Assembly (NCBI GenBank): GCA_943332855.1
Contig: CALQRA010000002.1
Location: 19,154-83,153, forward strand
Source of the DNA: Candidatus Kuenenia stuttgartensis
GTDB taxonomy: Bacteria > Planctomycetota > Planctomycetia > Pirellulales > UBA1268
Reading direction: 5' to 3'
DNA: 64,000 bases
Numbering within the stretch: the stretch's first letter is position 1; each line of letters opens with the position of its first letter. The position numbers and the translations under genes are program-made. Of the stretch, positions 1,580 through 43,278 are shown piece after piece. The notes under the pieces are model-generated. The model did not search any database and was not told the origin of the DNA. It saw only the letters and a list, made by a program, of their open reading frames with translations.

Positions 1580-2188
1580 TCAGCGCGACTCTCCGGGTGC
1601 GGTCGGGCGCGGGCTTGGCCCGTTGGTGCTGGCCCCCGGAAACACCGGTGCGTTGAATCCGGGGAGGGTCTGGCTTCGCCCGGGATCTGTCGTCGGTTGG
1701 GGCGGAGCCACCGGCGCCGTCGCGGGGCGCGACCCTGGTACGAGATTCGACCAGTTCGTGTTCGGGGGCGGAACCGGCTGCCCGGGGACGGCCGCTGGGG
1801 CGGGCGGCGGGGGGAATCCTGCTGGCGCCCGTGTCACCGGTGTGATGGCAGCGGAGGGTTTCAACTGCGGCGCCATCGGCCTCACGGTGATGCCCCCACC
1901 GGGGATGCCCGGCAGGCCGTCGCCGGCAGGCGCGACGCCTGGTTGGCTTGCCGCCGCCTTGCGGAGTTGCTGGGCTCTGGCCCGTGCCCGGAGCCGATCG
2001 CTCCGCAGCGGAATGCCGGGATAGGCCTGAACCGGCACCTCGAGGCTCGGCAACCCGATCCGGCTGCCGTCGCCAAAGTACGTGAACATCTCGATCGCCC
2101 GTGCCGGCAGCACCAGCGACAACGACAGCAGCATCGTTCCCGCCGACCAACGCGCGACACGCGACCACCGCCGCGGGGTGCAAGTCAT
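1580..2188 (-). CDS. Hypothetical secreted proline-rich protein
   Basis: Internal ATG at 2188 gives MTCTPRRWSRVARWSAGTMLLSLSLVLPARA, which is signal-like, followed by a Pro-rich low-complexity region. No family recognised. Confidence 0.4.
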   Translation of the reverse strand: MTCTPRRWSRVARWSAGTMLLSLSLVLPARAIEMFTYFGDGSRIGLPSLEVPVQAYPGIPLRSDRLRARARAQQLRKAAASQPGVAPAGDGLPGIPGGGITVRPMAPQLKPSAAITPVTRAPAGFPPPPAPAAVPGQPVPPPNTNWSNLVPGSRPATAPVAPPQPTTDPGRSQTLPGFNAPVFPGASTNGPSPRPTAPGESR

Positions 2189-2475
2189 GTTCGGCCTCCC
2201 TGCCGATGGCTCTCCGGCACGGCGGGCCGCCGTCCCGCCGACGGCCATCCCCCCCTACCACAGGGTTCTTCGGCTCGATCCGCGGCGTCACTCATCGATT
2301 CCTCAGCGGGTCGGTCGCCACCGACACGACCGTCAGGACCGTCACCACCCGATCTTCGTCGGCCGTGGCCCCTACCCGGAGGCGATGGCCGGGCTGGTAC
2401 GACCACCCCGGCGGATGGCATGTCCGCTTCCGCCCAGGCCGGGCGCGGCCGCCGAACCGGGGTAGGATTGTGACC

Positions 2476-3456
2476 ATGGCCTCCGATCCTCGCGCCTTCG
2501 ATCCCGCCACGGCCTGCTGGGCGATCGCCTCCCTGGCCGCACTGCTGACCGCGGGTGCAGCCATGCGCGCTGCCTTCGCCACGCGCGGCTCGACGGCCGT
2601 CCCGGCGACTCTGTGGGCCATCGTCGCCTGCCTCGCGCTGCTGCTCGACACGGCGGCCCGAGCCTCGGGAATCGTCTCCCAACCCGCCGCCGCCGCATCC
2701 CTGCGGATGGTGACCGCGAGCTTGTCGCTCTGTCCGGCGATGTCGCTCCTCGGTGCCAAACGCCCGCAGCATGGCGTCTGGCAGCTGATCGTCGCGGCGC
2801 TGGCGGTGATCCTCCTCCTGCCGGCGCTCTCCACGGTGCTCGTGCGACCAGACAGCGTTCCCGATGCCCATTTCCTCGGCCGCTGCTTCCTCGTCATCCT
2901 CGCGCTCGTCGGCTGGATGAACTTCGTCGCCACCCGTCACGGCGCCGCCGCGACGCTCGTCACCCTCGGGCAATTGGTGGTGGTCCGTGGATTCCTGCCG
3001 CTGGTCGACAGTGAATTGGCCTTCCCACCGACCGGTTCCAGCGGCGCCCCCGGGGCAGCATTCGTCGACGCGATCGGCGCCAGCCTAGCCGCCGCCGGCG
3101 GGCTCCTGGCCCTGGCGCGCAGCCGGCGGACGCCATCGTCGCCGGCCGCGGAGGGGACGTTCGCGGCAGCGCTCGGGCCGGCATTTTTTGCCTTCAGGGA
3201 GACGCTCGGCGCCGCATGGACACTGCGCGTCGCCGAGCGATTCGATGCCATCGCCATCAGCCGCGGCTGGCCCTGCCGCCTCCACTTCGACGGCTTCCGT
3301 CCCCCCGACGCTCCGTTCGACGGACCGTGGCAGCGAGACGCCCGCCGGGCCCTGGCGGCCCTGTTCCGTCGGTTCGTCTCGCCAAACTGGCTCGGTCGGC
3401 ACGGTTGGCCGGCGGCGGGCGGCGGGCGATTGGCTCCGGAGGAACGGGGGGGCTAG
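2476..3456 (+). CDS. Hypothetical multi-pass membrane protein
   Basis: ATG at 2476 (MASDPRAF...). Several hydrophobic segments of about 20 aa are present (WAIASLAALLTAGAA, LWAIVACLALLL, LIVAALAVILLLPAL, CFLVILALVGWMNF). No family recognised. Confidence 0.5.
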   Translation: MASDPRAFDPATACWAIASLAALLTAGAAMRAAFATRGSTAVPATLWAIVACLALLLDTAARASGIVSQPAAAASLRMVTASLSLCPAMSLLGAKRPQHGVWQLIVAALAVILLLPALSTVLVRPDSVPDAHFLGRCFLVILALVGWMNFVATRHGAAATLVTLGQLVVVRGFLPLVDSELAFPPTGSSGAPGAAFVDAIGASLAAAGGLLALARSRRTPSSPAAEGTFAAALGPAFFAFRETLGAAWTLRVAERFDAIAISRGWPCRLHFDGFRPPDAPFDGPWQRDARRALAALFRRFVSPNWLGRHGWPAAGGGRLAPEERGG

Positions 3457-3539
3457 ACTGGGCCGCTTCCGGGAAGACTGGCCGTTGGCCGGATCCACGG
3501 TCCTTCACCGGTTCGTCCAGCCCCATCCAGGAGCCAGTC

Positions 3540-3866
3540 ATGTCCGAGTCGTCCGCCCAGCGCCCCGCCCAGGAACCGATGCAGGTGCCCGTCGACGAAT
3601 CCCATATTCTCGCCACCTACGCGAACTTCTGCCGCGTGACCGGCACGCCGGAAGAGTTGATCGTCGACTTCGGTCTCAACAAGCAGGTGGCCGGGACGTC
3701 CCCCGAGACGATCCAGCTGACCCAGCGGATCATCGTCAATTTCTTCACCGCGAAGCGTCTGGCCTACGCCCTCCAGATGGCGGTGGCCCGTCACGAGCAA
3801 GCTTTCGGCGTCCTCGAGACCGATGTCCAGCGGCGAGTGATCCACCAGCAGGCTGCCAAGGCCTGA
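3540..3866 (+). CDS. Small conserved hypothetical protein (DUF3467-like)
   Basis: 108 aa from ATG 3540. The pattern ATYANFCRVTGTPEELIVDFG...RIIVNFFTAKRL resembles the DUF3467 family. Family assignment is from memory only. Confidence 0.55.
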   Translation: MSESSAQRPAQEPMQVPVDESHILATYANFCRVTGTPEELIVDFGLNKQVAGTSPETIQLTQRIIVNFFTAKRLAYALQMAVARHEQAFGVLETDVQRRVIHQQAAKA

Positions 3867-4130
3867 CCAAGCACGATCGGGGATGGCCAGTCGACTCGCG
3901 ACGCCGTCGCCAGCCCGGTCATTCAGCCAATCCACCCGGCGACCCCGGGGCGGGTTTGGCACGTATGACAACCACCACCCGGTGGGCATCGCCGGCGGAC
4001 CCTCCGCCGGCGATGTCCACCGCGACAGTCCATGGGAAAAGTCCTTCGTGGCCTTTTTCCTCGGACAGCCGCCGCATCCAGCGGCGGGTCACTGTATCCC
4101 CAGCCTGCCACCTTTCCGGTTCAGGGCCCA

Positions 4131-6224
4131 ATGAGCACCGTTGATCCCCGCGCCGTCGACGAGGCCCGCCAGCAGATCCGCGCGATCGTGGCGGAGATCG
4201 ACCAACTCGGCCGGTCTGATCTCGCCGAGGCCGATTTCTTCCGCGGACTCCTCGATCGGGTCCTCGAGGCGATGGGGGCCGTGGCCGGGTTGGTGTGGAT
4301 CGTCGGGGAAGGGGGGCGGTGCGAGCCGGTCTGCCACGCTGGGGTCCAAGCAACCGGGTTAACAGACTCCCCGGAGATGCAGGAGGCGCACGGCCGACTC
4401 ATTGAATCGCTCCTCGCCGGCACCGAGGGGATGCTGATCCCCGCCCGGGCCCAACTGGCCGGGCCCGACGGGAAACCAGTGGCGGGCAACCCGACCGATC
4501 TCCTGCTCGTCGCTGCCCCGATCGATCGCAACGGACAGCGGTCCGGGCTCCTCGAGGTTTTCCACCAGCCCCACCCCCCTGAAGTCGAGCAGGGATTCCT
4601 CACCTTCCTCGCCCAGGTGGCGACGGTGGCGGGCAGCTACCTCGCCCGCCGCCAGTCGAAGTCGATCGACGCCCAGCAGACCACGCTCACGCAGGTCGAC
4701 CGCTTCAGCCGGGCGGTCCACGAATCGCTCGACCCGATCGCGACGGCGTTCGTGCTTGCCAATGAGGCCCGGAGGATCATCGGCTGCGACCGCGTCAGTG
4801 TCCTCGTCCGCCGTCGCCGACGCCTCCGACTCGAGGCCGTCAGCGGACAGGAATCGGTGGAGCGGCGGGCCACGGCGGTCCAGGCGATCGAGGCCCTCGC
4901 CCGCGTCGTCTCCCGCGCCCGCGATCCGCTCTGGCATCCCGATCCCGGGCGCGAGCTCCCGCCGCAGATCGAGGAGGAGCTCGAGCATTTCATCGACGAA
5001 TCGCACGCCACGGCCCTGGCGGTGATCCCCCTGGAGCGGCCAAAGCCGACGCCGGTCGTCAAGCCCGGAGGGGTGGACGCGGTGGCGGTTGCCCGAGCCG
5101 AATCGAACTCCGACGGCAACGAGGATCGCGAACCGGTCGGCGTGCTCGTGGCCGAATGGTTCTCCTCGTCGTCGTTCGACGGCGGGAAGCGGGCCAGAGT
5201 CGACCTCGTCTCGGACCACGGACGGGTGGCGCTGGCCAACGCGCTGGATCACACCAGCCTGCCGCTCTACGGCATCCTCGATTTCCTCGGCAAGTCGCGC
5301 GTCCTGACGACCGCCCGCAACCTCCCGCGGACGCTGACGGCGGTGGTGGCGGCGCTGACGGGCTTGGCCGCCCTCGTGCTGATCCCCGCCGATTTGCGGC
5401 TCGAGGGGAAGGGAACGCTCGAGCCGGTCCATCGCCGCGACGTTTTCTCAGGCATCGACGGCGTGATCGAGTCGATTGCCGACGGCGTGGCCCACGGGAT
5501 CGACGTGAAGGAGGGGCAGTTGCTCGCGACGCTCCGCAACACCGATCTCGAGGTGGCCCTGACCGACGTCCTCGGCCGCAAGGCATCGAGCGAGGAGCAA
5601 CTTGTCTCCACGCAGCGGGCCCTCCTCGAAGACAACAAGATCTCCGCCGATGAACGGACACGAATGTCGGGCCGTGTCGCCCAGCTGCGGCGCGAGATCG
5701 AGAGCCTCGAGGAGCAACGGAAATTATTCCTCACCAAAAAGCAGTCCCTTGAGGTCCGCAGCCCGATCGACGGCGTGATCGTCACCTGGCAGGTCCGCGA
5801 CCGGCTCCTCCTCCGACCGGTCGAGAAGGGGCAGGTGTTGCTCGCGGTCGCCGACAAGACCGGCCCGTGGGAGCTCGAGGTCCACATGCCCGATGACCGC
5901 CTCGGCCACGTCAACCGGGCAGCGACCCAGGCGCGCCAGAAGGAGCGGGAACTGAAAGTCGATTACGTTCTCGCCACCGACCCCGGCACCCGGCACTACG
6001 GCTCCGTCAAGGAGATCCACGAACAGGCCGAGGTGCGCGGCGAGGCGGGCAACACCGTGATGGTGCGGATCACGATCGATCCCTCGAACCACGATCGCGA
6101 GGAGCTTGGCGCCGGAGCCACCGTGACGGCGCGGATCAACTGCGGCAAACGTTCGCTGGGGTATGTCTGGTTCCACGACGTGCTCGCCTTCATCCAATCC
6201 CAGATCCTGTTTCGTCTGTGGTGA
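4131..6224 (+). CDS. Tandem-GAF / TM / HlyD-type membrane fusion protein (MFP)
   Basis: ATG at 4131; an alternative in-frame ATG lies at 4032. Two cytoplasmic GAF-like regions are followed by one TM (LTAVVAALTGLAALVLI). After that comes a barrel-sandwich/coiled-coil MFP region (IDVKEGQLLATLRN..., long heptad region, SPIDGVIV). Confidence 0.75.
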   Translation: MSTVDPRAVDEARQQIRAIVAEIDQLGRSDLAEADFFRGLLDRVLEAMGAVAGLVWIVGEGGRCEPVCHAGVQATGLTDSPEMQEAHGRLIESLLAGTEGMLIPARAQLAGPDGKPVAGNPTDLLLVAAPIDRNGQRSGLLEVFHQPHPPEVEQGFLTFLAQVATVAGSYLARRQSKSIDAQQTTLTQVDRFSRAVHESLDPIATAFVLANEARRIIGCDRVSVLVRRRRRLRLEAVSGQESVERRATAVQAIEALARVVSRARDPLWHPDPGRELPPQIEEELEHFIDESHATALAVIPLERPKPTPVVKPGGVDAVAVARAESNSDGNEDREPVGVLVAEWFSSSSFDGGKRARVDLVSDHGRVALANALDHTSLPLYGILDFLGKSRVLTTARNLPRTLTAVVAALTGLAALVLIPADLRLEGKGTLEPVHRRDVFSGIDGVIESIADGVAHGIDVKEGQLLATLRNTDLEVALTDVLGRKASSEEQLVSTQRALLEDNKISADERTRMSGRVAQLRREIESLEEQRKLFLTKKQSLEVRSPIDGVIVTWQVRDRLLLRPVEKGQVLLAVADKTGPWELEVHMPDDRLGHVNRAATQARQKERELKVDYVLATDPGTRHYGSVKEIHEQAEVRGEAGNTVMVRITIDPSNHDREELGAGATVTARINCGKRSLGYVWFHDVLAFIQSQILFRLW

Positions 6225-7237
6225 CATCACCGCACTGCATCGCCCCCCGCGCCCCCCGTGGGGCCGGCCGACTCCCGGAGGTCATCGTGCGTTTTTCCCC
6301 CGTCATCGCCCTGTTCACCGTCAGCGTCGCGGCCCTCGCGCTCCCCGCGGCCCCCCCCGCGGCCCCGTCAGCCTCCGCGCGGAGTGCTGCCGAGCCGGTC
6401 CTCGAGCACTGCCTCGTGTCGGTTCTGAAAGAGGCGAAGGTGCCGGCCAGGGAAGGGGGGGTGCTCATCGATCTCCTCGTCCGCGAAGGGGATTCGATCA
6501 AGGCCGGCGACGTGATCGCCAAGATCGACGACAGCCAGCCGCAGTTCGAGCGCCGCAAGGCCAAGGCCGAACACGACCAGGCGGTGGCGAAGGCCAGCAG
6601 CGACGTCGATGTCCGCTTCGCAGTGGCCTCGGAGCTCGTGGCAGCCGCCGAGTTCGAGAAGGCGCAGCTGGCTGCCGATAAGCTCCAGGGGAGTGTCACC
6701 CTCGTCGAGCTCGACCGCCTCGAACTCAACGAGCGGAAGGCTGAACTGCAGATCGAACAGGCCGAGCTCGAGCGGAGGATGACCGCACTGGCCTCCGATT
6801 CAAAGGCGGTGGAGGTCGAGGCTGCCGAGAAGGCCATCGAGCGGCGCACGATCACCGCTCCCCTCGAGGGCACTGTCGTCCAGGTCTTTCCGCACCAGGG
6901 GGAATGGATGCAACCGGGCGATCCGCTGGCCCGCGTCGTCCAGACCGACCGGCTCCGCGTCGAGGGCTACGTCGACTCCTCCCGCTGGAATCCGGAAACC
7001 GTCAGGGACCGGCCGGTGACCGTCGACGTCGTGTTCGCCGACAACCGGACGGAGTCGTTCCCGGGGCGGATCGTGTTCACCAGCCCGCTGGTCGATTCCG
7101 GAGGCGACTACCGCGTTTGGGCGGAGGTGGAGAATCGGCGCATCGCCGATTCGACCCAATGGCTCCTTCGGGCCGGCCAATCGGCCACGATGACGATCCA
7201 TTCCAGCCAGGCGCCCCTGGCCCCCGTCACGCGGTAG
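6218..7237 (+). CDS. HlyD-family membrane fusion protein (periplasmic adaptor)
   Basis: Signal/anchor FSPVIALFTVSVAALALPAAP, a biotinyl-lipoyl-like hairpin (VREGDSIKAGDVIAKID ... ITAPLEGTVVQV) and a central coiled coil. The track start at 6218 is a GTG overlapping the previous stop, so the true start may be the GTG near 6287. Confidence 0.75.
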   Translation: MVTSPHCIAPRAPRGAGRLPEVIVRFSPVIALFTVSVAALALPAAPPAAPSASARSAAEPVLEHCLVSVLKEAKVPAREGGVLIDLLVREGDSIKAGDVIAKIDDSQPQFERRKAKAEHDQAVAKASSDVDVRFAVASELVAAAEFEKAQLAADKLQGSVTLVELDRLELNERKAELQIEQAELERRMTALASDSKAVEVEAAEKAIERRTITAPLEGTVVQVFPHQGEWMQPGDPLARVVQTDRLRVEGYVDSSRWNPETVRDRPVTVDVVFADNRTESFPGRIVFTSPLVDSGGDYRVWAEVENRRIADSTQWLLRAGQSATMTIHSSQAPLAPVTR

Positions 7238-7261: not shown

Positions 7262-9496
7262 ATGTCGACCGCCGCGGACGCCTTCCGATCGAGCACCACG
7301 CGCCCCGTCGGCCTGCGCCGCCGCGGTGACCTCGTGGCGACGAGGCAGTCCTACCAGGGGCAGATTTGGTGGGTCGTGAAGGATCCGATTTCGCTGGGCT
7401 ATTTTCGCTTCCGCCCCGAGGAATATGCCCTCCTCGACATGCTCGATGGCCAGGCGAGCCTGGAGCGGCTCAAGGAGCAATTCGAAGCCCGTTTCCCCCC
7501 CCGCCGAATCACCGTCGAGGAATTGGCCCGCTTCGTGGCCACGCTCCACCGCAGCGGCCTCGTCATTGGCGACCGTCCGGGGCAGGGGCCGCAGCTCTTC
7601 GAGCGCCGCCGTCAGCGGATCTGGCGGCAGTGGATGGCATGGCTTGCCAACATCATGTCGATGCGCTTCCGGGGGATCGACCCCGACCGGATCCTCCACC
7701 GGATTGACCCTGCGTTCGGCTGGCTGTTCTCCGTCCCCGCGGCGGCCGGTATGGCCGTGCTCGTCTCCAGTGCTCTCCTGCTGGTGCTGGTCAACTTCGA
7801 TGTCTTCAGGTCGAAACTGCCGGAGTTCCAGCAGTTTTTCGCCTCCGGCAACTGGATCTGGCTGGCCTTGGCCCTCGGGTTCACGAAGGTTCTCCACGAG
7901 TTTGGGCACGGTCTGTCGTGCAAGCATTTCGGTGGCGAATGCCACGAGATGGGGGTGATGCTCCTTGTCTTCACTCCGTGTCTCTACTGCGATGTGTCCG
8001 ACAGCTGGATGCTGCCGAGCAAGTGGCAACGGGCGGCGATCGGCGCGGCGGGGATGTACATCGAGCTGATTCTCGCCTCGATCGCCACCTTCCTGTGGTG
8101 GAACTCCCATCCGGGGGTCTTCAACCAGCTGTGCCTCGATGTGATGTTCGTGTCGAGCGTGTCGACGCTGATGTTCAATGCCAATCCGCTGATGCGCTAC
8201 GACGGCTATTACATCCTCTCCGACCTCCTCGAGATCCCCAACCTCCGCCAGAAGGCGACGACAATCCTCGGCAGGCTCGCGTCGCTCTGGTGCCTCGGTA
8301 TCGAGCAGCCGGAGGACCCGTTCCTCCCCACGCGCAACCGTGGCCTGTTCGCCCTGTTCGCCATCGCCTCGAGCCTCTACGGCTGGATGGTGACAGCGTC
8401 GATTTTCCTTTTTGTGTGGAGTGTCTTCAAACCCTACCGCCTCGAGGTGCTGGGGCAGATGCTCGCGATGGGCGCCCTATGGGGGCTTGTTGTCAGGCCG
8501 ATCCAAAACATGATCAAGTTCCTCAATGTTCCCGGGAGGCGCGAGGAAGTGAAGCTCCGTAATCTCGTCACGACGGGAGCCGTCGTCGCCGCCCTCGCCG
8601 CCGCCGTGGCACTCATTCCCCTTCCCCAACGGGTGTGGTGTGCCGCCGAACTGCGTCCCCGGGCGGAGGAGACGGTCTACGTGTCGGTCGCCGGAGTCCT
8701 CGAGAGCATCGCGGTGAAGCCCGGAGCGCTGGTCGAGGCGGGCGCCGAGATCGCTCGGCTCTCCAGCATCGATCTCGATCTGGCGATCGCCGATCTCGAC
8801 GGCAAGGCCACCCAGGCCCGGGCGCGATTGGCGAGCCTCGAGCGCGAGCGGTTTACCGATCCCGCCGCCAGCCTCGAGATCGGCACCGTGGAGGAGTCGC
8901 TCAAGAGCGTTGAAGAGCAACTCAAGCGGAAGCGGAAAGACCGGGCGGACCTCGTGCTCAGCGCCCCGCGGAGCGGCGTGGTGCTCCCATCCCCGGCCTT
9001 GAAGCCCCCCCCGGACGGAACCGGCCGGCTCCCCGGGTGGAGCGGCCATGTCCTCGAGGAGCGGAACCTCGGCGCCACGCTCGCCGAGGGGACGGTTCTC
9101 TGTCTTGTCGGTGATCCGAACGCGTTCGAGGCGGTGATGATCGTCGACCAGTCGGAGATGGAGTTCGTGTCGCGGGGGCAGCGGGTCGACCTGAAAATCA
9201 ACGCGCTGCCCTGGCAGACGTTCCGCGGAACGATCGACGAGATCGCCGAGACGAATCTGGAGGGAGGATCGGAGCGGTTGAGCGTGAAGTCCGGCGGTCA
9301 GGTTCCCACGCGGACCGACGAATCGGGGAAGGAGATGCCGATCTCCACTAGCTACGAGGCCCTCATGGCGGTCGATGATCCCGACGGTGCCTTCACCGCT
9401 GGGATGCGCGGCTCGGCGCGGATTCGGGTCGGGCAGCGGACGGTCGGCAGTTGGTTGCTGCGTCTCCTCTGGCAGACGTTTAACTTCCGGATGTGA
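7262..9496 (+). CDS. Fusion protein: PqqD-like N-domain + peptidase M50 (site-2-protease type, HEFGH) + HlyD-type MFP C-domain
   Basis: HEFGH zinc motif embedded in multiple TMs (VLHEFGHGLSCKHFGGECHEMGVMLLVFTPCLYCDVSD). A later TM (VTTGAVVAALAAAVALI) is followed by an MFP-like region (VKPGALVEAGAEIARL, coiled coil, SAPRSGVV). Confidence 0.8.
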   Translation: MSTAADAFRSSTTRPVGLRRRGDLVATRQSYQGQIWWVVKDPISLGYFRFRPEEYALLDMLDGQASLERLKEQFEARFPPRRITVEELARFVATLHRSGLVIGDRPGQGPQLFERRRQRIWRQWMAWLANIMSMRFRGIDPDRILHRIDPAFGWLFSVPAAAGMAVLVSSALLLVLVNFDVFRSKLPEFQQFFASGNWIWLALALGFTKVLHEFGHGLSCKHFGGECHEMGVMLLVFTPCLYCDVSDSWMLPSKWQRAAIGAAGMYIELILASIATFLWWNSHPGVFNQLCLDVMFVSSVSTLMFNANPLMRYDGYYILSDLLEIPNLRQKATTILGRLASLWCLGIEQPEDPFLPTRNRGLFALFAIASSLYGWMVTASIFLFVWSVFKPYRLEVLGQMLAMGALWGLVVRPIQNMIKFLNVPGRREEVKLRNLVTTGAVVAALAAAVALIPLPQRVWCAAELRPRAEETVYVSVAGVLESIAVKPGALVEAGAEIARLSSIDLDLAIADLDGKATQARARLASLERERFTDPAASLEIGTVEESLKSVEEQLKRKRKDRADLVLSAPRSGVVLPSPALKPPPDGTGRLPGWSGHVLEERNLGATLAEGTVLCLVGDPNAFEAVMIVDQSEMEFVSRGQRVDLKINALPWQTFRGTIDEIAETNLEGGSERLSVKSGGQVPTRTDESGKEMPISTSYEALMAVDDPDGAFTAGMRGSARIRVGQRTVGSWLLRLLWQTFNFRM

Positions 9497-9528
9497 TCTC
9501 CGCCCGACCACCAACTCCCCGTCCACCC

Positions 9529-10419
9529 ATGCCGCATCTCGAGCGGATCACGCTCCATCCGGTGAAGAGCCTCGACGGCCTCAATGTCGAGCGGGCCTGC
9601 GTGCTCCCCTGCGGGGCGCTGGCCAACGACCGCCGCTGGCGCCTGGTCGACTTCGATGGGCATGTCGTCAACGCCAAGCGGACGCCGCTCATCCAGCGCA
9701 TCCGGGCGACCTTCGATCTCGACGGCGCCCCGACGGTGGGGCTCTCCACCCCCCCCGACTGGCGCGGGGAGACAGCGCCTCCCCCCCCCTTTCCAGACAG
9801 CTTTCCCCTCGTGCCCGGGCCGGAGGGGCCATGTCGCTGGCTCTCCGCCGCACTCGGGGTGGAGGTCCTCCTCCAGGAGCGTGCCGAAGGGGGATTCCCC
9901 GACGACCGCGACGCGATGGGGCCGACGCTCGTCTCCACCGCATCGCTGAGCGAAGTGGCCCGCTGGTTCTCCCTGCCGCTCGGGGAAGTCCGGCGCCGAT
10001 TCCGGATCAATCTCGAGGTGGGCGACTGCCAGGCCTTCTGGGAAGACGCGTTGGCCAGCCCCGCGCCCCCCGGGAAAAGCTCCGCTGCGCCCGCCGGACC
10101 GGTCCTGCACGACCCCCTCCCAGCCGATTCCTGCGCCCCGCCGCCGCTGTCGTTTCGTGTCGGCGAGGCCGGCTTCACGGCTGTCAACGTCTGTCGGCGC
10201 TGCCCCGTGCCGGCCCGCGACTCGACCACTGGCCGCATCACGGAACACTTCCGGGAGGTGTTCGAGGCCTGGCGGCGGCGGCGGCTCCCCCGTGACGTCG
10301 ATGCGGCGGCCTGGGGGGGGCTCTACCGGCTGGCGATCAACACCGTCGGCGATGGGCAGGGCGGAAACGTGCACGTGGGCGACCGGATCGAACCGGTCGC
10401 CCACGCAGGTGATTCATGA
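9529..10419 (+). CDS. MOSC domain protein (MOSC_N beta-barrel + MOSC)
   Basis: ATG at 9529. MPHLERITLHPVKSLDGL...NDRRWRLVD is MOSC_N-like. The C-terminal part has the conserved Cys context VCRRCPVPARD. It starts 33 bp after the M50-MFP stop. Confidence 0.7.
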   Translation: MPHLERITLHPVKSLDGLNVERACVLPCGALANDRRWRLVDFDGHVVNAKRTPLIQRIRATFDLDGAPTVGLSTPPDWRGETAPPPPFPDSFPLVPGPEGPCRWLSAALGVEVLLQERAEGGFPDDRDAMGPTLVSTASLSEVARWFSLPLGEVRRRFRINLEVGDCQAFWEDALASPAPPGKSSAAPAGPVLHDPLPADSCAPPPLSFRVGEAGFTAVNVCRRCPVPARDSTTGRITEHFREVFEAWRRRRLPRDVDAAAWGGLYRLAINTVGDGQGGNVHVGDRIEPVAHAGDS

Positions 10420-37936: not shown

Positions 37937-40465
37937 TCATTCGCTCGACACGGCCTCGAGCAGATCGATCCGCGCCGCCCGCCGGGCGGGGATCCAGGCG
38001 GCCAGGGCCGTGACCACGACGGCGGCGAGCATGTTGGCGAGGATCACCGTCGGCCGGAGCGTCGAGCGGATCGGATGGCCGAGGAGGGGCTGGCTGGCGA
38101 TCTGGATGAACAGCGCGGTCGTCAGGCCGGCGATGAGACCGATGACGGCGCCGGAGAGTCCGAGAAGGACGCTTTCGAGGACGACCACCCCGGTCACCTG
38201 TCGGCTCGTCATGCCGACCGCCCGCAGGAGCCCGAGCGTGCACCGCTGCTCGAGGACGTTCATCGTCACGGTGTTGGCGACGCCGAGGCTCCCCACCAGA
38301 AACCCGAGCCCGAGGATCGCCCACAGCGACCCGACCACGCCGTTGACGATCCCGTCGACGAAGCGTTTCACATCGGTGAAGCTCCGCAGGAGCATCCCGC
38401 GCCCGTCGGCGATCGCCTGGAGCGGCGCGCGGAGCGCGGCAGCCTCCCCCGGCTTGGCCGTGACGAGGATCACGTCGGCCGATTCCAGTCCGAAGAGCCG
38501 TTTGGCGGCATCCCGGCGGAGGATGAGCGACGCCCCACCCGAGGTGTAATCGACGACGAGCGCGGCCACGCGGACCTTCGTCTTCCGACCGAAGACCTCG
38601 ACGGCGAGGTCGTCGCCGGCGACGAGCCCGAGCCGGCGGGCGAGCACCGTCCCGGCGACCGCCTCGCCCCGGGCGAGGGCCGCCCGGACGGTCGATTCGT
38701 CGGCACCGACCGGGTCGAGCGGGAGCGGGGCGTCATCCGGCACGTCGCGGGCCACGATCACGCACGCCCCCCCGGCGACTCGGCCGGCAGCGATGCCGAT
38801 GACGTCGATCCGGTCGACGCCGCCGATCGCCCGGACATCCTCCTCGGCGGAGCGCGGACCGTCGCCGCCGCCTTCGGCAGCCGCGCTCATCGTCCCGGCG
38901 GGGGTCATCACCCAATCGGCTTGCATCAGCCGGGCGTACCAGCCGCGGATGTCCTCGACGTTGTCGCGGATCGCATGCCCCAATCCGATGCCGTTGCTGA
39001 CCGCGACAACGAGCACGCCGGTGGTCAGGGCCGTCCGCACCGGCTGGCGGAGGATCTGTCCGAGGGCCAGCTCACGCTCGATCCGGAAACGGCGCGGCAC
39101 GAGGGCGGCACAGGCGCGGGCGATCGGCGGCAGGATCACCGGCGTCATCGCCACGAACGACAACAACATCGCGATCCCGGCCGGCACGGCGGCCCGTGGC
39201 GGCAACTTCTCGAGGATCACCAGGCCGAGCATGCCCGTCGCGAACGCCCACAGAACGAGTGCCGCCCCGACAAACCTCCAGGGGACGCCGGGGGAAGGGG
39301 GGGGAGGGGCATTGGCGAGCCCCTCGAGCGGGTCGACGGCGGCCGCCTGCCGCGCCGGCCACCACGCCGCCGCCACGGCCACGAGGATCCCCATCAGCGC
39401 CGACAGCGGGATGATGGCAGGATGGACGACGAGCCCTGTGAAGGGGGCCTGGAGCGAGCGGGAGATCCCCGCCGCGATCGGCCGCGCGGCCGCCAGCCCG
39501 GCCGCGACACCGATCGCTGCCCCGACGGCGCCCAGCAGCGCCGACTCCATCGTGATCATGCGCCGGATCTGCCGGCCACTCGCTCCGAGGAGCCGCACCA
39601 GCGACAACGACCGGCGGCGTTCCGTGACGTTCATCAGCATGGCGTTGCCGACGATGAACCAACTCATCGCCACCGTCAGGCCGGTGACGAAATCGAGCCC
39701 CAGGTCGGCCGAATGCATGACGTCCTCTGCCATGCCAGCCCGCCCGGCAGGGATCTCGGCGACGAGGGTGTCGGGGAGGAGTTTCCCCGCGGCCTCGACG
39801 ACCCCCTTCCGGTTAGCCTCGGGGGTGAGGGCAACCCGCACCCGATCGACCAAGCCGAGGGCGTTGGACATGTCCTCGAGCGCGGCGATGTCGAGAACGA
39901 CCCCCGCCCCCTCACCGAACCAGCGCAGCGACGTCGGCACCGCGAGGCCGACGACGGTCATCCGCCGCACCCCGCGCCGGGCGAAGAACAGGATCTCGTC
40001 GTCGACGACCTTGCCGAGACTGCGGGCGAGATTCTCGTCGAGGACGACCTCGTCGATCGCCGTGCAGGCCCGCCCCGCCGAGAGCTCGAGCATGCCGATG
40101 GCGACGAGCCGTTCGGCGTCGACCCCGACGGCGATCTCGCGGACCCGTTTCTCCCCCACCCGCAGGAGCGTGGGCCGGTAGAAGAGCGGCACGACCGCCC
40201 GGACGCCGGGGATGTTGGCAAGCGACGGCAGGTCGCTGGCCTCGAAACGCCCCCCGGCCTTCGAGAGGATATCGACCGCCGGGACCCCCTCGATCGCCGA
40301 CGTCAGCGACTTGTATCCGGCGCGGGAGGCATCGGCCGACACCCACGTGGCGACGACGGCCCCCACGGCCACGGCGACGCTGAAGATCGTCGCCAGCGCC
40401 CTGCCGGGCCGGCGCGTCCACTGCCGAACGAGCAGCCGGCGCAGTTCGAACACGCCGAGACTCAT
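37937..40465 (-). CDS. ABC transporter permease with two FtsX/MacB-type domains
   Basis: 842 aa. An N-terminal TM + periplasmic domain + 3 TM unit is repeated twice, with FtsX-type conserved segments (RRRSLSLVRLLGASGRQI.., TLGLLRAVGMTSRQV..). Confidence 0.85.
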   Translation of the reverse strand: MSLGVFELRRLLVRQWTRRPGRALATIFSVAVAVGAVVATWVSADASRAGYKSLTSAIEGVPAVDILSKAGGRFEASDLPSLANIPGVRAVVPLFYRPTLLRVGEKRVREIAVGVDAERLVAIGMLELSAGRACTAIDEVVLDENLARSLGKVVDDEILFFARRGVRRMTVVGLAVPTSLRWFGEGAGVVLDIAALEDMSNALGLVDRVRVALTPEANRKGVVEAAGKLLPDTLVAEIPAGRAGMAEDVMHSADLGLDFVTGLTVAMSWFIVGNAMLMNVTERRRSLSLVRLLGASGRQIRRMITMESALLGAVGAAIGVAAGLAAARPIAAGISRSLQAPFTGLVVHPAIIPLSALMGILVAVAAAWWPARQAAAVDPLEGLANAPPPPSPGVPWRFVGAALVLWAFATGMLGLVILEKLPPRAAVPAGIAMLLSFVAMTPVILPPIARACAALVPRRFRIERELALGQILRQPVRTALTTGVLVVAVSNGIGLGHAIRDNVEDIRGWYARLMQADWVMTPAGTMSAAAEGGGDGPRSAEEDVRAIGGVDRIDVIGIAAGRVAGGACVIVARDVPDDAPLPLDPVGADESTVRAALARGEAVAGTVLARRLGLVAGDDLAVEVFGRKTKVRVAALVVDYTSGGASLILRRDAAKRLFGLESADVILVTAKPGEAAALRAPLQAIADGRGMLLRSFTDVKRFVDGIVNGVVGSLWAILGLGFLVGSLGVANTVTMNVLEQRCTLGLLRAVGMTSRQVTGVVVLESVLLGLSGAVIGLIAGLTTALFIQIASQPLLGHPIRSTLRPTVILANMLAAVVVTALAAWIPARRAARIDLLEAVSSE

Positions 40466-41259
40466 CGGCGCTTCCTTCCGGGCCGTTTGCCACCACCGCC
40501 ACCGCCACCGTTCGATCGCGGGGCTGGGCGGGGGACCGGCGGGCGACCGCCACCGACCGGGCTGCCGGGCTGGAGGGTGTCGGAGATGATCCGACCATCG
40601 GCCATGCGGATGCAGCGGCCCGCCTCGGCGGCGATGCCTGGATCGTGGGTCACGAGCACGACCGTCTGGCCATGGTCGGCGACGATCGATCGGAGCAATT
40701 CGACGACACGGCGCGAGTTCTCGGAATCGAGGGCTCCGGTCGGCTCGTCGGCGAGGACGATCGCCGGCGCGGTGACCAGCGCCCGCGCGATCGCTCCGCG
40801 CTGCTGCTCACCGCCGGAGAGGGCATCGGGACGGTGGTCGGCGCGGTGCCCCATGCCGACGGTCTCGAGCGCGGCGCGGGCAGCCGCGTCACAGCGGGCC
40901 TCGGGGATGCCGTCGAGCACCAGCGGCAGGCCGACATTCTCGACGAGGGACAATTCGGGGAGGAGGTTGTAGCGTTGGAAGACGAAGCCGATCCGGCGCC
41001 GCCGGACCAGCGCCAGGTCGTCGTCGCCGAGGGCCGCCAGATCGACCCCCTCGAGGATCACCTTCCCGGCGGTCGGCCGGGTGATGCCACCGAGAAGGTG
41101 GAGGAGCGTGCTCTTTCCCGACCCCGAGGCCCCGGTGATCGCCACGAATTCCCCCGGCTCGATCTCGACATCGACACCACGGATCGCCATCACGCCCGCC
41201 GTCGATCTGGCAGCGGCGCCGAAGGTCTTCTCGAGGTGTACGGCCCGGAGGATCGCCAC
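40462..41259 (-). CDS. ABC transporter ATP-binding protein (MacB/LolD type) with Gly-rich basic C-terminal tail
   Basis: Walker A GASGSGKST, Q-loop, signature LSGGEQQR, Walker B VLADEPTGALD, H-loop VTHD. The tail is ...NGGGGGGGKRPGRKRR. There is a 4-bp overlap with the permease gene. Confidence 0.9.
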   Translation of the reverse strand: MAILRAVHLEKTFGAAARSTAGVMAIRGVDVEIEPGEFVAITGASGSGKSTLLHLLGGITRPTAGKVILEGVDLAALGDDDLALVRRRRIGFVFQRYNLLPELSLVENVGLPLVLDGIPEARCDAAARAALETVGMGHRADHRPDALSGGEQQRGAIARALVTAPAIVLADEPTGALDSENSRRVVELLRSIVADHGQTVVLVTHDPGIAAEAGRCIRMADGRIISDTLQPGSPVGGGRPPVPRPAPRSNGGGGGGGKRPGRKRR

Positions 41260-41481
41260 GGTGTCACGTCCCCTGGTTTGGGGACGGCCTGGAGGGAAGG
41301 GGGAGAAGGGGTGATCTGGGGAACCGGACGATTAATGTACCCAACCCCCCACCGCGCTGTGATCCCAAACTGGCCGACCGTTCTGGTGCGGTTTTCTGGA
41401 GCGATCAGGCAAAGAGTGACGAATCTTCCAGATGTGCCCCCGGCGGACCGCTTCACCCCGATCACGCACCTGGACTCCGCC

Positions 41482-43278
41482 ATGTCTCCCCGAACACGAT
41501 GCTCCCCTCCCGTCGCGCTGTTGGTCGCCCTCGCCAGCGGCTTCCCGCTGGTCGCAGCGGAGGAGGCCTCCTGGCCGCGCCCGCCGGGTGCCCCGATGCA
41601 ACTCCCCTCGTCGGAAGTGCCGCTGGCGGTGACGCCCGATGACGGTCTCGTCGACGGCCTCCCGATGGAGGGCACCGTCCCCACCCCGCGAACGCTCGAG
41701 GAGTTCGTCGCTCTGGCGGAACGGAGCCACCCGCGGATGCTCGCCGCCCGGGCCGCCGTCGAGGCCGCCCGCGGGAAGGCGGTGCAGGCCCGGCTCTACC
41801 CGAATCCGGTGATCGCCGGCTTCAGCCCGCAGATCGCCGGTCCGGAGAGCCAGTGGAGCGGCACGGTCGCCCAAGACCTCGTCACTGGCGGCAAGCTCCG
41901 CCTCCAGCAGCAGGCCGCGATCCGCGACATCCAGCGGGCCGAATACGAACTGATCCGGGCCCGCTTCGACGTCCTCAGCGGCGTTCGCCAGAGCTATTAC
42001 CAGCTCCTCGTCGCCCAGCGCCGGATCGAGATCTACAAACTCCTCCTCGACATCGCCAAACGCTCCTACGAGATCGGCCGTCAGCTCGCCGAGGCTGGGG
42101 AGGGGACAAAGGCCGACGTTCTCTTCTGGAGCATCGAGCGCGACCGGGCCGAGGTGCGGATTCTGAACGCGACGGTGTTCATCGAGACCGGGCGCCGCGA
42201 GCTCGCCGCCGCGATCGGCCTGCCACGGGTCGACATCGAGCGACTCGAAGCCGACCTCTTCCAGGAGCTCCCCAACTTCGACCTCAAGGAGCTCCAGGAA
42301 GCGGTCGTCCGCAGCAACGCCCTGCCGCGCGCCGCAGAGGCGCGGGTCGCCGGCAACCAATGGGCCCTCGAGCGGGCCGTTGTCCAACCGATCCCGAATA
42401 TCAACCTCATGGGCGGCTACCAGCGGCAGGTCGGCATCCCCGCCCAGGATCAGGGGCTCGCGCAGGTGATGATGTCGGTCCCCCTCTTCGACCGCAATCA
42501 GGGGAACATCCGCGCCGCGCGGGCCGAGATCGCCACGGCGCGGGCCGACCTGCGGATGGTGGAGCTCGACCTCGCCACGCAGACTGCCCGAGCCGTCGCC
42601 GCCTACCGGACCTCGCAGCGACTCGTCGATTGGTATGAGGAATACATTCTCCCCAAGGCGCGAGAGACCGTAACCCTCACCCAGACGCTCTATGCCCGCG
42701 GCGAGGTGACCTTCTTAAGTCTTCTCCAGGCGCAGAAGATTCTCACCGAGACGGAGCTGGCCTACGTCGATGCCCAGGCCGAGCGCTGGACCGGCGCCGT
42801 GGCGATCGCCGATCTCCTCCAGCTCGAGGAGTTCCCACCGCGGGCCGACGCACCGGCCGCGCAGCCGATGGGAGAACCGACGGCGCGCCTGGAGGAGGTA
42901 CAGGCCCCGGCCGCCAAGAAGCCGGATGCGGGCGCCGCCAAGCCAACCGGCACGGAGAAGCCCGCGGCAGCTCCCGCGGCATCACCCGCTGCGCCCCCGG
43001 GCAGCAGCCCCCCATCCCCCGTGGGGCGTCCGGCCGTGCCACCGGCCAAGGATATCCTGCCCCCGCAGCCGACCGCGCCGGCAGCGGCAGGGATCCCGCC
43101 GCGAGGGGAGGGGGGGATGCCGCTGACGTCGGCCAACCCTCTGCCATCGGCCGCCGTGACCCTGGTGGGGGGCGTGCGTGAGGCCTCTGGCCCAGACCGC
43201 ATCGCCCCGCGCCCAAGCCCCCGCTCCGTCTTCGCAGCAGGCGCCGAAACGCCGTGGGCTGATGGCCCTCATCCCTGA
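41482..43278 (+). CDS. TolC/CzcC-family outer-membrane efflux protein with long Pro/Ala-rich C-terminal extension
   Basis: ATG 41482 with signal PPVALLVALASGFPLVAAE. Two OEP-type helical repeats are present (RAAVEAARGKAVQARLYPNP..., ARAEIATARADLRMVELDL...). The last ~150 aa (about 42825-43278) are P/A-rich low complexity. Confidence 0.8.
   Translation: MSPRTRCSPPVALLVALASGFPLVAAEEASWPRPPGAPMQLPSSEVPLAVTPDDGLVDGLPMEGTVPTPRTLEEFVALAERSHPRMLAARAAVEAARGKAVQARLYPNPVIAGFSPQIAGPESQWSGTVAQDLVTGGKLRLQQQAAIRDIQRAEYELIRARFDVLSGVRQSYYQLLVAQRRIEIYKLLLDIAKRSYEIGRQLAEAGEGTKADVLFWSIERDRAEVRILNATVFIETGRRELAAAIGLPRVDIERLEADLFQELPNFDLKELQEAVVRSNALPRAAEARVAGNQWALERAVVQPIPNINLMGGYQRQVGIPAQDQGLAQVMMSVPLFDRNQGNIRAARAEIATARADLRMVELDLATQTARAVAAYRTSQRLVDWYEEYILPKARETVTLTQTLYARGEVTFLSLLQAQKILTETELAYVDAQAERWTGAVAIADLLQLEEFPPRADAPAAQPMGEPTARLEEVQAPAAKKPDAGAAKPTGTEKPAAAPAASPAAPPGSSPPSPVGRPAVPPAKDILPPQPTAPAAAGIPPRGEGGMPLTSANPLPSAAVTLVGGVREASGPDRIAPRPSPRSVFAAGAETPWADGPHP

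Follow-up and report, generated by a model that had tools for sequence, protein, structure and literature searches.

RiPP recognition elements (RREs; RiPP, a peptide synthesised by the ribosome and modified post-translationally) are regarded as a hallmark of RiPP gene clusters and serve as a handle for mining them from genomes. The daptide peptidase MpaP carries an RRE fused to an intramembrane site-2 protease, and RRE-dependent leader removal has been proposed for it; TglG, TmoG and EpeP are other M50 enzymes of RiPP maturation. A second described system is the conserved locus of Kamneva, Poudel and Ward 2015 (PMC4452313), where a secondary SecA_DEAD protein is encoded together with Peptidase_M50/HlyD, GAF/HlyD and HlyD proteins, and at times with an outer-membrane efflux protein (OEP). 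That report assigns this type-I-secretion-like module no function and mentions none of PqqD, RRE, DUF3467, leader or cargo; the main text of the RRE-Finder paper leaves M50, HlyD and Planctomycetes unmentioned. Here we analyse a 744-residue fusion of an RRE, an M50 site-2-type protease and an HlyD adaptor (the fusion), encoded in a 64,000-nucleotide stretch of Candidatus Kuenenia stuttgartensis DNA (assembly GCA_943332855.1, contig CALQRA010000002.1, positions 19,154 to 83,153). This whole stretch is termed the window.

Structure prediction and family profiles confirm that residues ~18–102 of the fusion have a genuine PqqD-type RRE fold. The neighbouring genes suggest a conserved, as yet uncharacterised module that would export large surface proteins, not a small antibiotic-like peptide. 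The RRE fold, RRE–site-2-protease fusions and the gene module are already in print, and given the MpaP precedent an RRE–M50 fusion is in itself not new. In the literature searched we did not find an RRE on the M50–HlyD protein of the module, the linkage of that protein to DUF3467, or its association with proteins bearing an N-terminal LEPR leader. DUF3467 appears there once, in passing, and LEPR-XLL, LEPR-8K and 'LEPR motif' are not mentioned.

The fusion gene and its predicted parts, in window coordinates, are:

7262..9496, + strand: whole gene, a 744-aa fusion of RRE, M50 site-2-type protease and HlyD adaptor (open reading frame (ORF), translation, Pfam, NCBIfam).
7313..7567, + strand: RRE, a PqqD-type winged helix, residues 18–102, predicted to be cytoplasmic (AlphaFold2, Foldseek, family profile, PqqD matches of relatives).
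7586..7660, + strand: predicted long basic helix, residues 109–133, leading from the RRE to the first membrane segment (AlphaFold2, predicted local distance difference test (pLDDT) 59–75).
7709..8551, + strand: M50 / site-2-protease membrane core, residues ~150–430 (Pfam Peptidase_M50, alignments to NF041824 and NF058609, hydrophobic segments).
7895..7909, + strand: HEFGH zinc-binding and catalytic motif, residues 212–216 (motif search).
8177..8206, + strand: NANPLMRYDG, the second site-2-protease motif, residues 306–315 (motif search).
8564..8620, + strand: last predicted transmembrane (TM) anchor, residues 435–453, ahead of the periplasmic part (hydropathy 2.21).
8624..9493, + strand: predicted periplasmic HlyD-type membrane-fusion domain, residues 455–744 (Pfam HlyD_D23 and HlyD_3; TIGR01730 RND_mfp).

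A first-pass annotation, made from the letters and ORF translations of the window, had proposed this order of RRE, protease and export adaptor, and the Pfam and NCBIfam matches agree with it. Its translation of residues 30–104 at 7349–7573 (+) is exact and lies within the 744-aa ORF; it placed the domain correctly, although the true span of ~18–102 is slightly wider at the N-terminal end than the one quoted. The gene is present once in the genome of the window. The G+C content of the window is 68%, and the ORF shows the third-position G+C bias typical of real genes there. Relatives of the same length, 81–97% identical over the first 420 residues (the stretch searched), occur in many Planctomycetota metagenome bins.

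Against the RRE assignment stands the result for the single sequence, for which PqqD was the sole Pfam match, at an E-value of 0.24 and 12.2 bits against a threshold of 23.4. A search of the single domain sequence against PDB sequences gave a chance match only. This evidence is thin, so the PqqD assignment needs evidence from the family. Residues 20–135 were therefore searched against 1.8 billion cluster representatives, which yielded 1,493 matches; most of the top ones are ~740 residues long and carry the domain at the corresponding N-terminal place, and the shorter ones mostly look like fragments. For the domain tests we aligned the N-terminal domains of 66 diverse full-length relatives, 39–56% identical to the query, with a mean column identity of 55%. 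Pfam PqqD (PF05402) is matched by 51 of these 66 (E ≤ 1, best 1.2e-6) and TIGR03859 PQQ_PqqD by 54. The N-terminus of the daptide protease model NF041824 is matched by 25 and the ApyI RRE by 24, and other relatives match the PqqD-family peptide chaperones ScmD and WgkC. Some also give weak matches to other winged-helix families. When the family profile was compared with the PDB, PqqD (3g2b, E 0.009) ranked first, and the lasso-peptide RRE TfuB1 (6jx3_B) and PqqCD (5sxy) were likewise within the top four, in alignments that span the strands through to the last helix.

The AlphaFold2 model of residues 18–140 has three strands (25–31, 34–41 and 46–50) followed by three helices (52–60, 67–77 and 85–97), with pLDDT 93–97 up to residue ~100 and a less confident long helix (109–133, pLDDT 59–75) beyond. 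This agrees with the order of strands and then helices that the first-pass annotation had read from the sequence. The nine best Foldseek matches of this model in the PDB are all RREs, namely TbiB1 with its leader peptide (5v1u, 5v1v), CteB (5wgg, 5why) and TfuB1 (6jx3_B), at probabilities of 0.99–1.00 and sequence identities of 16–17%. The target-normalised template-modelling score is 0.70–0.74 for the stand-alone RREs TbiB1 and TfuB1; the value for CteB is low because its N-terminal RRE is part of a far longer chain. From the tenth match onward the probability is 0.2 or less and the root-mean-square deviation exceeds 12 Å. Profile and Foldseek searches thus both place the domain among RREs, as the first-pass annotation had read it, and not in an unrelated fold lacking winged-helix or RRE similarity. 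The RRE is moreover retained family-wide, since 105 of the 111 matches to the fusion in the phylum survey described below begin at or before residue 33.

The catalytic motifs of the adjoining M50 core are intact: HExxH and NxxPxxxxDG, which mark the M50 / site-2 proteases, are both present in membrane segments. We take Asp314, in NANPLMRYDG, to be the third zinc ligand. Pfam Peptidase_M50 matches residues 201–279 at 27.3 bits against a cut-off of 27.2. The top NCBIfam model is NF041824 (daptide_HExxH), with an E-value of 3.4e-52 and an alignment of residues 33–418 to profile positions 15–373 of 379; the score of 177.8 bits is under the 300-bit equivalog cut-off. The first 150 residues of the fusion contain no signal peptide and 26 Lys plus Arg, and we infer from this a cytoplasmic N-terminus and a periplasmic adaptor part. 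On hydropathy and charge, then, the RRE would face the cytoplasm and the adaptor the periplasm.

At the core of a conserved module stands the fusion. The module has four to five genes, namely DUF3467, GAF–HlyD, short HlyD and RRE–M50–HlyD, plus a truncated second SecA. The other module genes in the window are:

3540..3866, + strand: DUF3467 gene, 108 aa (Pfam PF11950, E 3e-20).
4032..6224, + strand: GAF-like cytoplasmic domain, TM segment and HlyD adaptor, 730 aa (Pfam HlyD_3, weak GAF; one predicted TM segment at 435–453).
6218..7237, + strand: short signal-anchored HlyD adaptor, 339 aa (TIGR01730, 100 bits; conserved synteny).

The GAF–HlyD, short HlyD and fusion genes form a tightly packed, co-directional trio: the short HlyD gene overlaps the GAF–HlyD gene by 7 nt and a 24-nt gap precedes the fusion. 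This trio is kept in all 21 related loci of at least 14 kb, down to 51% identity, with outer flanks that vary. We sampled 301 Planctomycetota genomes for a phylum survey. The fusion was present in 79, at one to three copies each (111 matches), nearly all in open frames of 700–780 residues. In 12 loci from other Planctomycetota families the same module parts recur in shuffled order, with DUF3467 sometimes in tandem.

The genome of the window has two SecA_DEAD genes. The second lies on another contig (C35:23666–25669) and encodes 667 aa with SecA_DEAD, preprotein-binding (PP_bind) and P-loop domains; the other is much longer, an open frame of 1,389 residues. Homologues of the second SecA (40–55% identity) stand directly beside the module in five of the 12 loci from other families, and in a sixth a weaker one (24%) occupies the same position. 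The window therefore holds the Kamneva 2015 module, whose ATPase gene in this genome lies outside it. On contig C35 (22357–25669) the second SecA gene overlaps by ~30 nt the end of a gene for a 446-aa trypsin-like/PDZ (HtrA-type) protease, with a DksA-like zinc-finger gene upstream; in the relatives' loci compared, the HtrA-type protease is not beside this SecA.

A candidate cargo for the module comes from the LEPR proteins. The NCBIfam model LEPR-8K (NF012209) scores over its cut-off in two frames of the window's genome, one of which extends past the end of its contig and has no fewer than 4,000 residues. This model is insensitive, having 24 positions, and found only two of the ~15 candidates given below. 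A scan of the genome with the motif LE-x-R-x-(L/M/V/I)-L-(S/A) gave 23 matches, of which 16 fall within residues 1–140 of their frames, where 36% would be expected (p 0.001). Some 15 of these, on contigs C14, C77, C115, C214 and others, look genuine, and their frames include ones of 11,060, at least 4,000, 2,682 and 1,994 residues. The leaders are 17–86 residues long and basic, 11 of 15 are without a Sec-like hydrophobic core, and their consensus ends in '(E)xLE(P/S/Q)RxxL(A/S)', termed the LEPR motif, with LE(P/S/Q/D)RxxL(A/S) among the ~15.

In the phylum survey, NF012209 matched 40 genomes, and 38 of these carry the fusion, as against 79 of the 301 overall (odds ratio 102, uncorrected for phylogeny). 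The two LEPR genomes without the fusion are weak NF012209 matches. Eleven LEPR genes, in ten genomes, lie within 12 kb of a fusion gene, and their N-termini show 'LEPRxLLSA' after a short leader. LEPR proteins and the fusion occur together in ten genomes without DUF3467; LEPR proteins never occur with DUF3467 alone.

We propose that the RRE docks the N-terminal LEPR leader of a large cargo protein at the protease for cleavage and export, within the conserved module, and give this reading a probability of about one half. The RRE would be held in the cytoplasm on its basic helical tether, beside the M50 core. Like other RREs, it would there take up a short N-terminal cargo leader as an extra strand, between strand 3 and helix 3, and present it to the intramembrane zinc site, where the leader would be cleaved. 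The cargo would be handed on to an assembly in the periplasm, made up of three different HlyD-type adaptors together with a channel in the outer membrane. Export would probably be driven by the truncated SecA and might be regulated by the GAF protein. The best candidate ligands would be the LEPR leaders of the ~15 large proteins; most of these leaders are without a Sec-type hydrophobic region. A leader-docking role is further supported by the homology of the RRE and M50 region to the daptide leader peptidase, as aligned to NF041824 above.

Several points weigh against this proposal. The link between LEPR proteins and the module is an association, and the co-occurrence statistics ignore shared ancestry. 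Among the 79 fusion genomes, 41 have no LEPR match at E ≤ 0.01, and in the genome of the window no LEPR gene adjoins the module. No inner-membrane channel besides the M50 core is evident. The leader could also be read by another component, either the preprotein-binding domain of SecA or DUF3467.

The first-pass annotation had supposed that a ribosomal peptide is recognised, cleaved and secreted by this one polypeptide. Its idea of leader-guided cleavage and export survives, with large LEPR-leader proteins as the likely cargo. The small RiPP-like peptide is not supported, there being no conserved short precursor in the intergenic gaps of the window or of distant loci and no conserved tailoring enzyme nearby. 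Nor is the sole polypeptide, since the fusion shares its module with three to four other genes.

A wider version of our proposal is more tentative, and we hold it somewhat less likely than not to be right in full. Here an RRE of RiPP type would have been recruited away from the making of peptide natural products, to read the signal in a secretion pathway for proteins. The LEPR leader on large or giant surface proteins lacking a Sec signal would be clipped, and the cargo would enter a conduit of three adaptors and an outer-membrane channel that has no ATP-binding cassette (ABC) transporter, powered by the truncated SecA. DUF3467 would serve as a cytoplasmic cargo adaptor or chaperone.

The part of DUF3467 bears on the best surviving alternative as well. 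The first-pass annotation missed this gene, which is genomically linked to the fusion. The reason is that the longest ORF in its frame (spurious, 3216–3866) starts too early. DUF3467 is at the same place in 42 related loci, with 74–100% identity, and is at least as conserved as its neighbours. It was found in 65 of the 301 Planctomycetota genomes; 52 have both it and the fusion, 27 the fusion only, 13 DUF3467 only and 209 neither (odds ratio 31, uncorrected for phylogeny). Within 5 kb of 28 of the 111 fusion genes there is a DUF3467 gene, always on the same strand; these cases come from 26 genomes of many families, and in two genomes DUF3467 adjoins both fusion paralogues. In one Planctomycetota family (loci L091 in G256, L095 in G146 and L096 in G042) a single-domain DUF3467 gene precedes an ORF that encodes two DUF3467 domains in tandem; the pair adjoins the module in some cases and is far away in others.

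The DUF3467 model is moderately confident (pLDDT 68), with three strands, a long helix and a disordered N-terminal tail (residues 1–19, pLDDT <50) in which the conserved motif 'VPVDES' lies. Foldseek gave no significant match in the PDB; the look-alikes MRP1/2, PC4/Sub1 and PUR (strand–strand–strand–helix) have probabilities of 0.5 or less. No sequence relative was found in the PDB. A SecB-like chaperone fold was considered and is not supported.

The RRE might instead bind DUF3467, as a substrate of the protease or as a chaperone or adaptor that delivers the cargo, with the 'VPVDES' stretch of the disordered tail as the candidate element. The position in the module in the window and the 42 related loci, the same-strand linkage and co-occurrence across the phylum, and a linkage that outlasts gene-order shuffling and at times includes tandem duplication are all in its favour. 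We nevertheless consider it unlikely. DUF3467 is conserved over its whole length, unlike a precursor with leader and core, and has neither a signal nor a recognisable fold match. It is also found where the module is absent, in the 13 Planctomycetota genomes and in Thermus, Bacteroides and Methanosarcina, as well as at unlinked loci, and the 27 fusion genomes do without it. On these occurrences we also rejected DUF3467 as an obligate part of the module.

More improbable still is a small ribosomal peptide, of RiPP or bacteriocin-like kind, that the RRE would recognise and the fusion by itself would cleave and export. Among characterised proteins, the RRE and M50 part is closest to leader peptidases of RiPPs (daptide MpaP and the YydH/LiaK family), and RREs are known almost only from RiPP pathways. 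A conserved short precursor ORF was, however, sought upstream of GAF–HlyD in the window and ten related loci, six of them distant, and none was found except DUF3467, in the closer clade only; the first-pass annotation had likewise seen no convincing precursor nearby, and the intergenic gaps of the window and of the distant loci bear this out. Neither the window nor the related loci have a conserved tailoring enzyme near the fusion, or daptide biosynthetic neighbours and precursors. With well-conserved proteins and fixed partners in 79 of 301 genomes, the module is moreover unlike a variable secondary-metabolite cluster. The lack of precursor and tailoring enzyme, a daptide score far under the equivalog cut-off and a phylum-wide module with fixed partners together make a small RiPP-like peptide unlikely.

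Least probable is a structural or regulatory winged helix that has lost leader binding and, for example, gates the protease or brings about its dimerisation, with regulated intramembrane proteolysis linked to the GAF sensor: site-2 proteases act classically in signalling, the adjoining adaptor has a GAF-like sensor domain (PMC4452313) and some relatives weakly match other winged-helix families, as noted, but all confident structural matches are leader-binding RREs and not DNA-binding winged helices, the domain is well conserved in the family by its mean column identity, and no anti-sigma or sigma genes are conserved near the module.

Other genes of the window accompany the module to varying degrees. 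A MOSC-domain gene (9493–10419, +) begins on the stop codon of the fusion; it is kept downstream in the closer clade (46–95% identity) and not in loci at ~52% identity, and is probably an operon passenger. Between a gene for a TPR protein (125–1543) and DUF3467, at 1580–3456, are two conserved genes without a Pfam family, a 222-aa minus-strand ORF and a ~326-aa membrane protein (2476–3456, +), which both keep their place in the closer clade. At 37937–43278 a MacB-type ABC pump (FtsX permease and ATPase, minus strand) stands beside a divergent TolC-family OEP gene (~40.6–43.3 kb). This pair has no neighbouring adaptor gene; the module, 28 kb away, accounts for the only three adaptor genes noticed in the window.

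The finding matters for genome mining, where the fusion family would form a very large class of false positives: relatives number more than 7,000, and a quarter of the sampled Planctomycetota carry the fusion. The domain may in addition have been put to a second use, the reading of a signal for protein export. For a module in print since 2015 with no function, the central protein gains a concrete, testable molecular role. A candidate cargo is named as well, the proteins with LEPR leaders, among them some of the genome's largest open frames, and so is a further conserved partner, DUF3467.

Compared with the known systems, the window shares the gene set of the Kamneva 2015 module, with three genes in the window and the SecA paralogue on contig C35. 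SecA is linked in that module, whereas the paralogue is unlinked in the window's genome while being adjacent in relatives. With the daptide enzymes MpaP/DapP (NF041824) the fusion shares the order of an N-terminal RRE and then an M50 core with HExxH, and the alignment spans both parts. It differs in having ~320 extra C-terminal residues that form the TM segment and the HlyD adaptor. MpaP/DapP come with an MpaB/C/D/M gene set and ELExMEAP precursors and the fusion locus with neither; the hosts are Actinomycetota or Bacillota for the daptide system and Planctomycetota for the fusion. The daptide leader motif ELExMEAP and the LEPR consensus ExLE(P)RxxL share a centre of 'LE' with Pro or Arg after it. 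That the two leaders are distantly related, given their homologous RRE–M50 proteins, is pure speculation.

The RREs of PqqD (3g2b), TbiB1/TfuB1 (5v1u, 6jx3) and CteB (5wgg) have the same fold of three strands then three helices, and RiPP RREs share with that of the fusion the 'LDG' turn after helix 1 and sequence similarity at profile level. The fusion RRE differs from them in its low identity (16–17%), in being fused to a protease and adaptor, and in its non-RiPP context, with adaptors, DUF3467 and MOSC as neighbours.

Classical type I secretion (HlyB–HlyD–TolC) has HlyD-type adaptors in common with the module, and a TolC-family gene is also found in the window. Peptidase-containing ABC transporters (PCATs) follow a similar logic, in which recognition and cleavage of a leader are coupled to export. 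In contrast to both, the module has no ABC transporter, there being no such partner in the operon or in conserved synteny and only the MacB-type pump 28 kb off in the window; its protease is a zinc M50 enzyme and not a C39 cysteine peptidase. In further contrast to type I secretion, it has three different adaptors, and its signal is presumed to be N-terminal rather than of the C-terminal RTX type.

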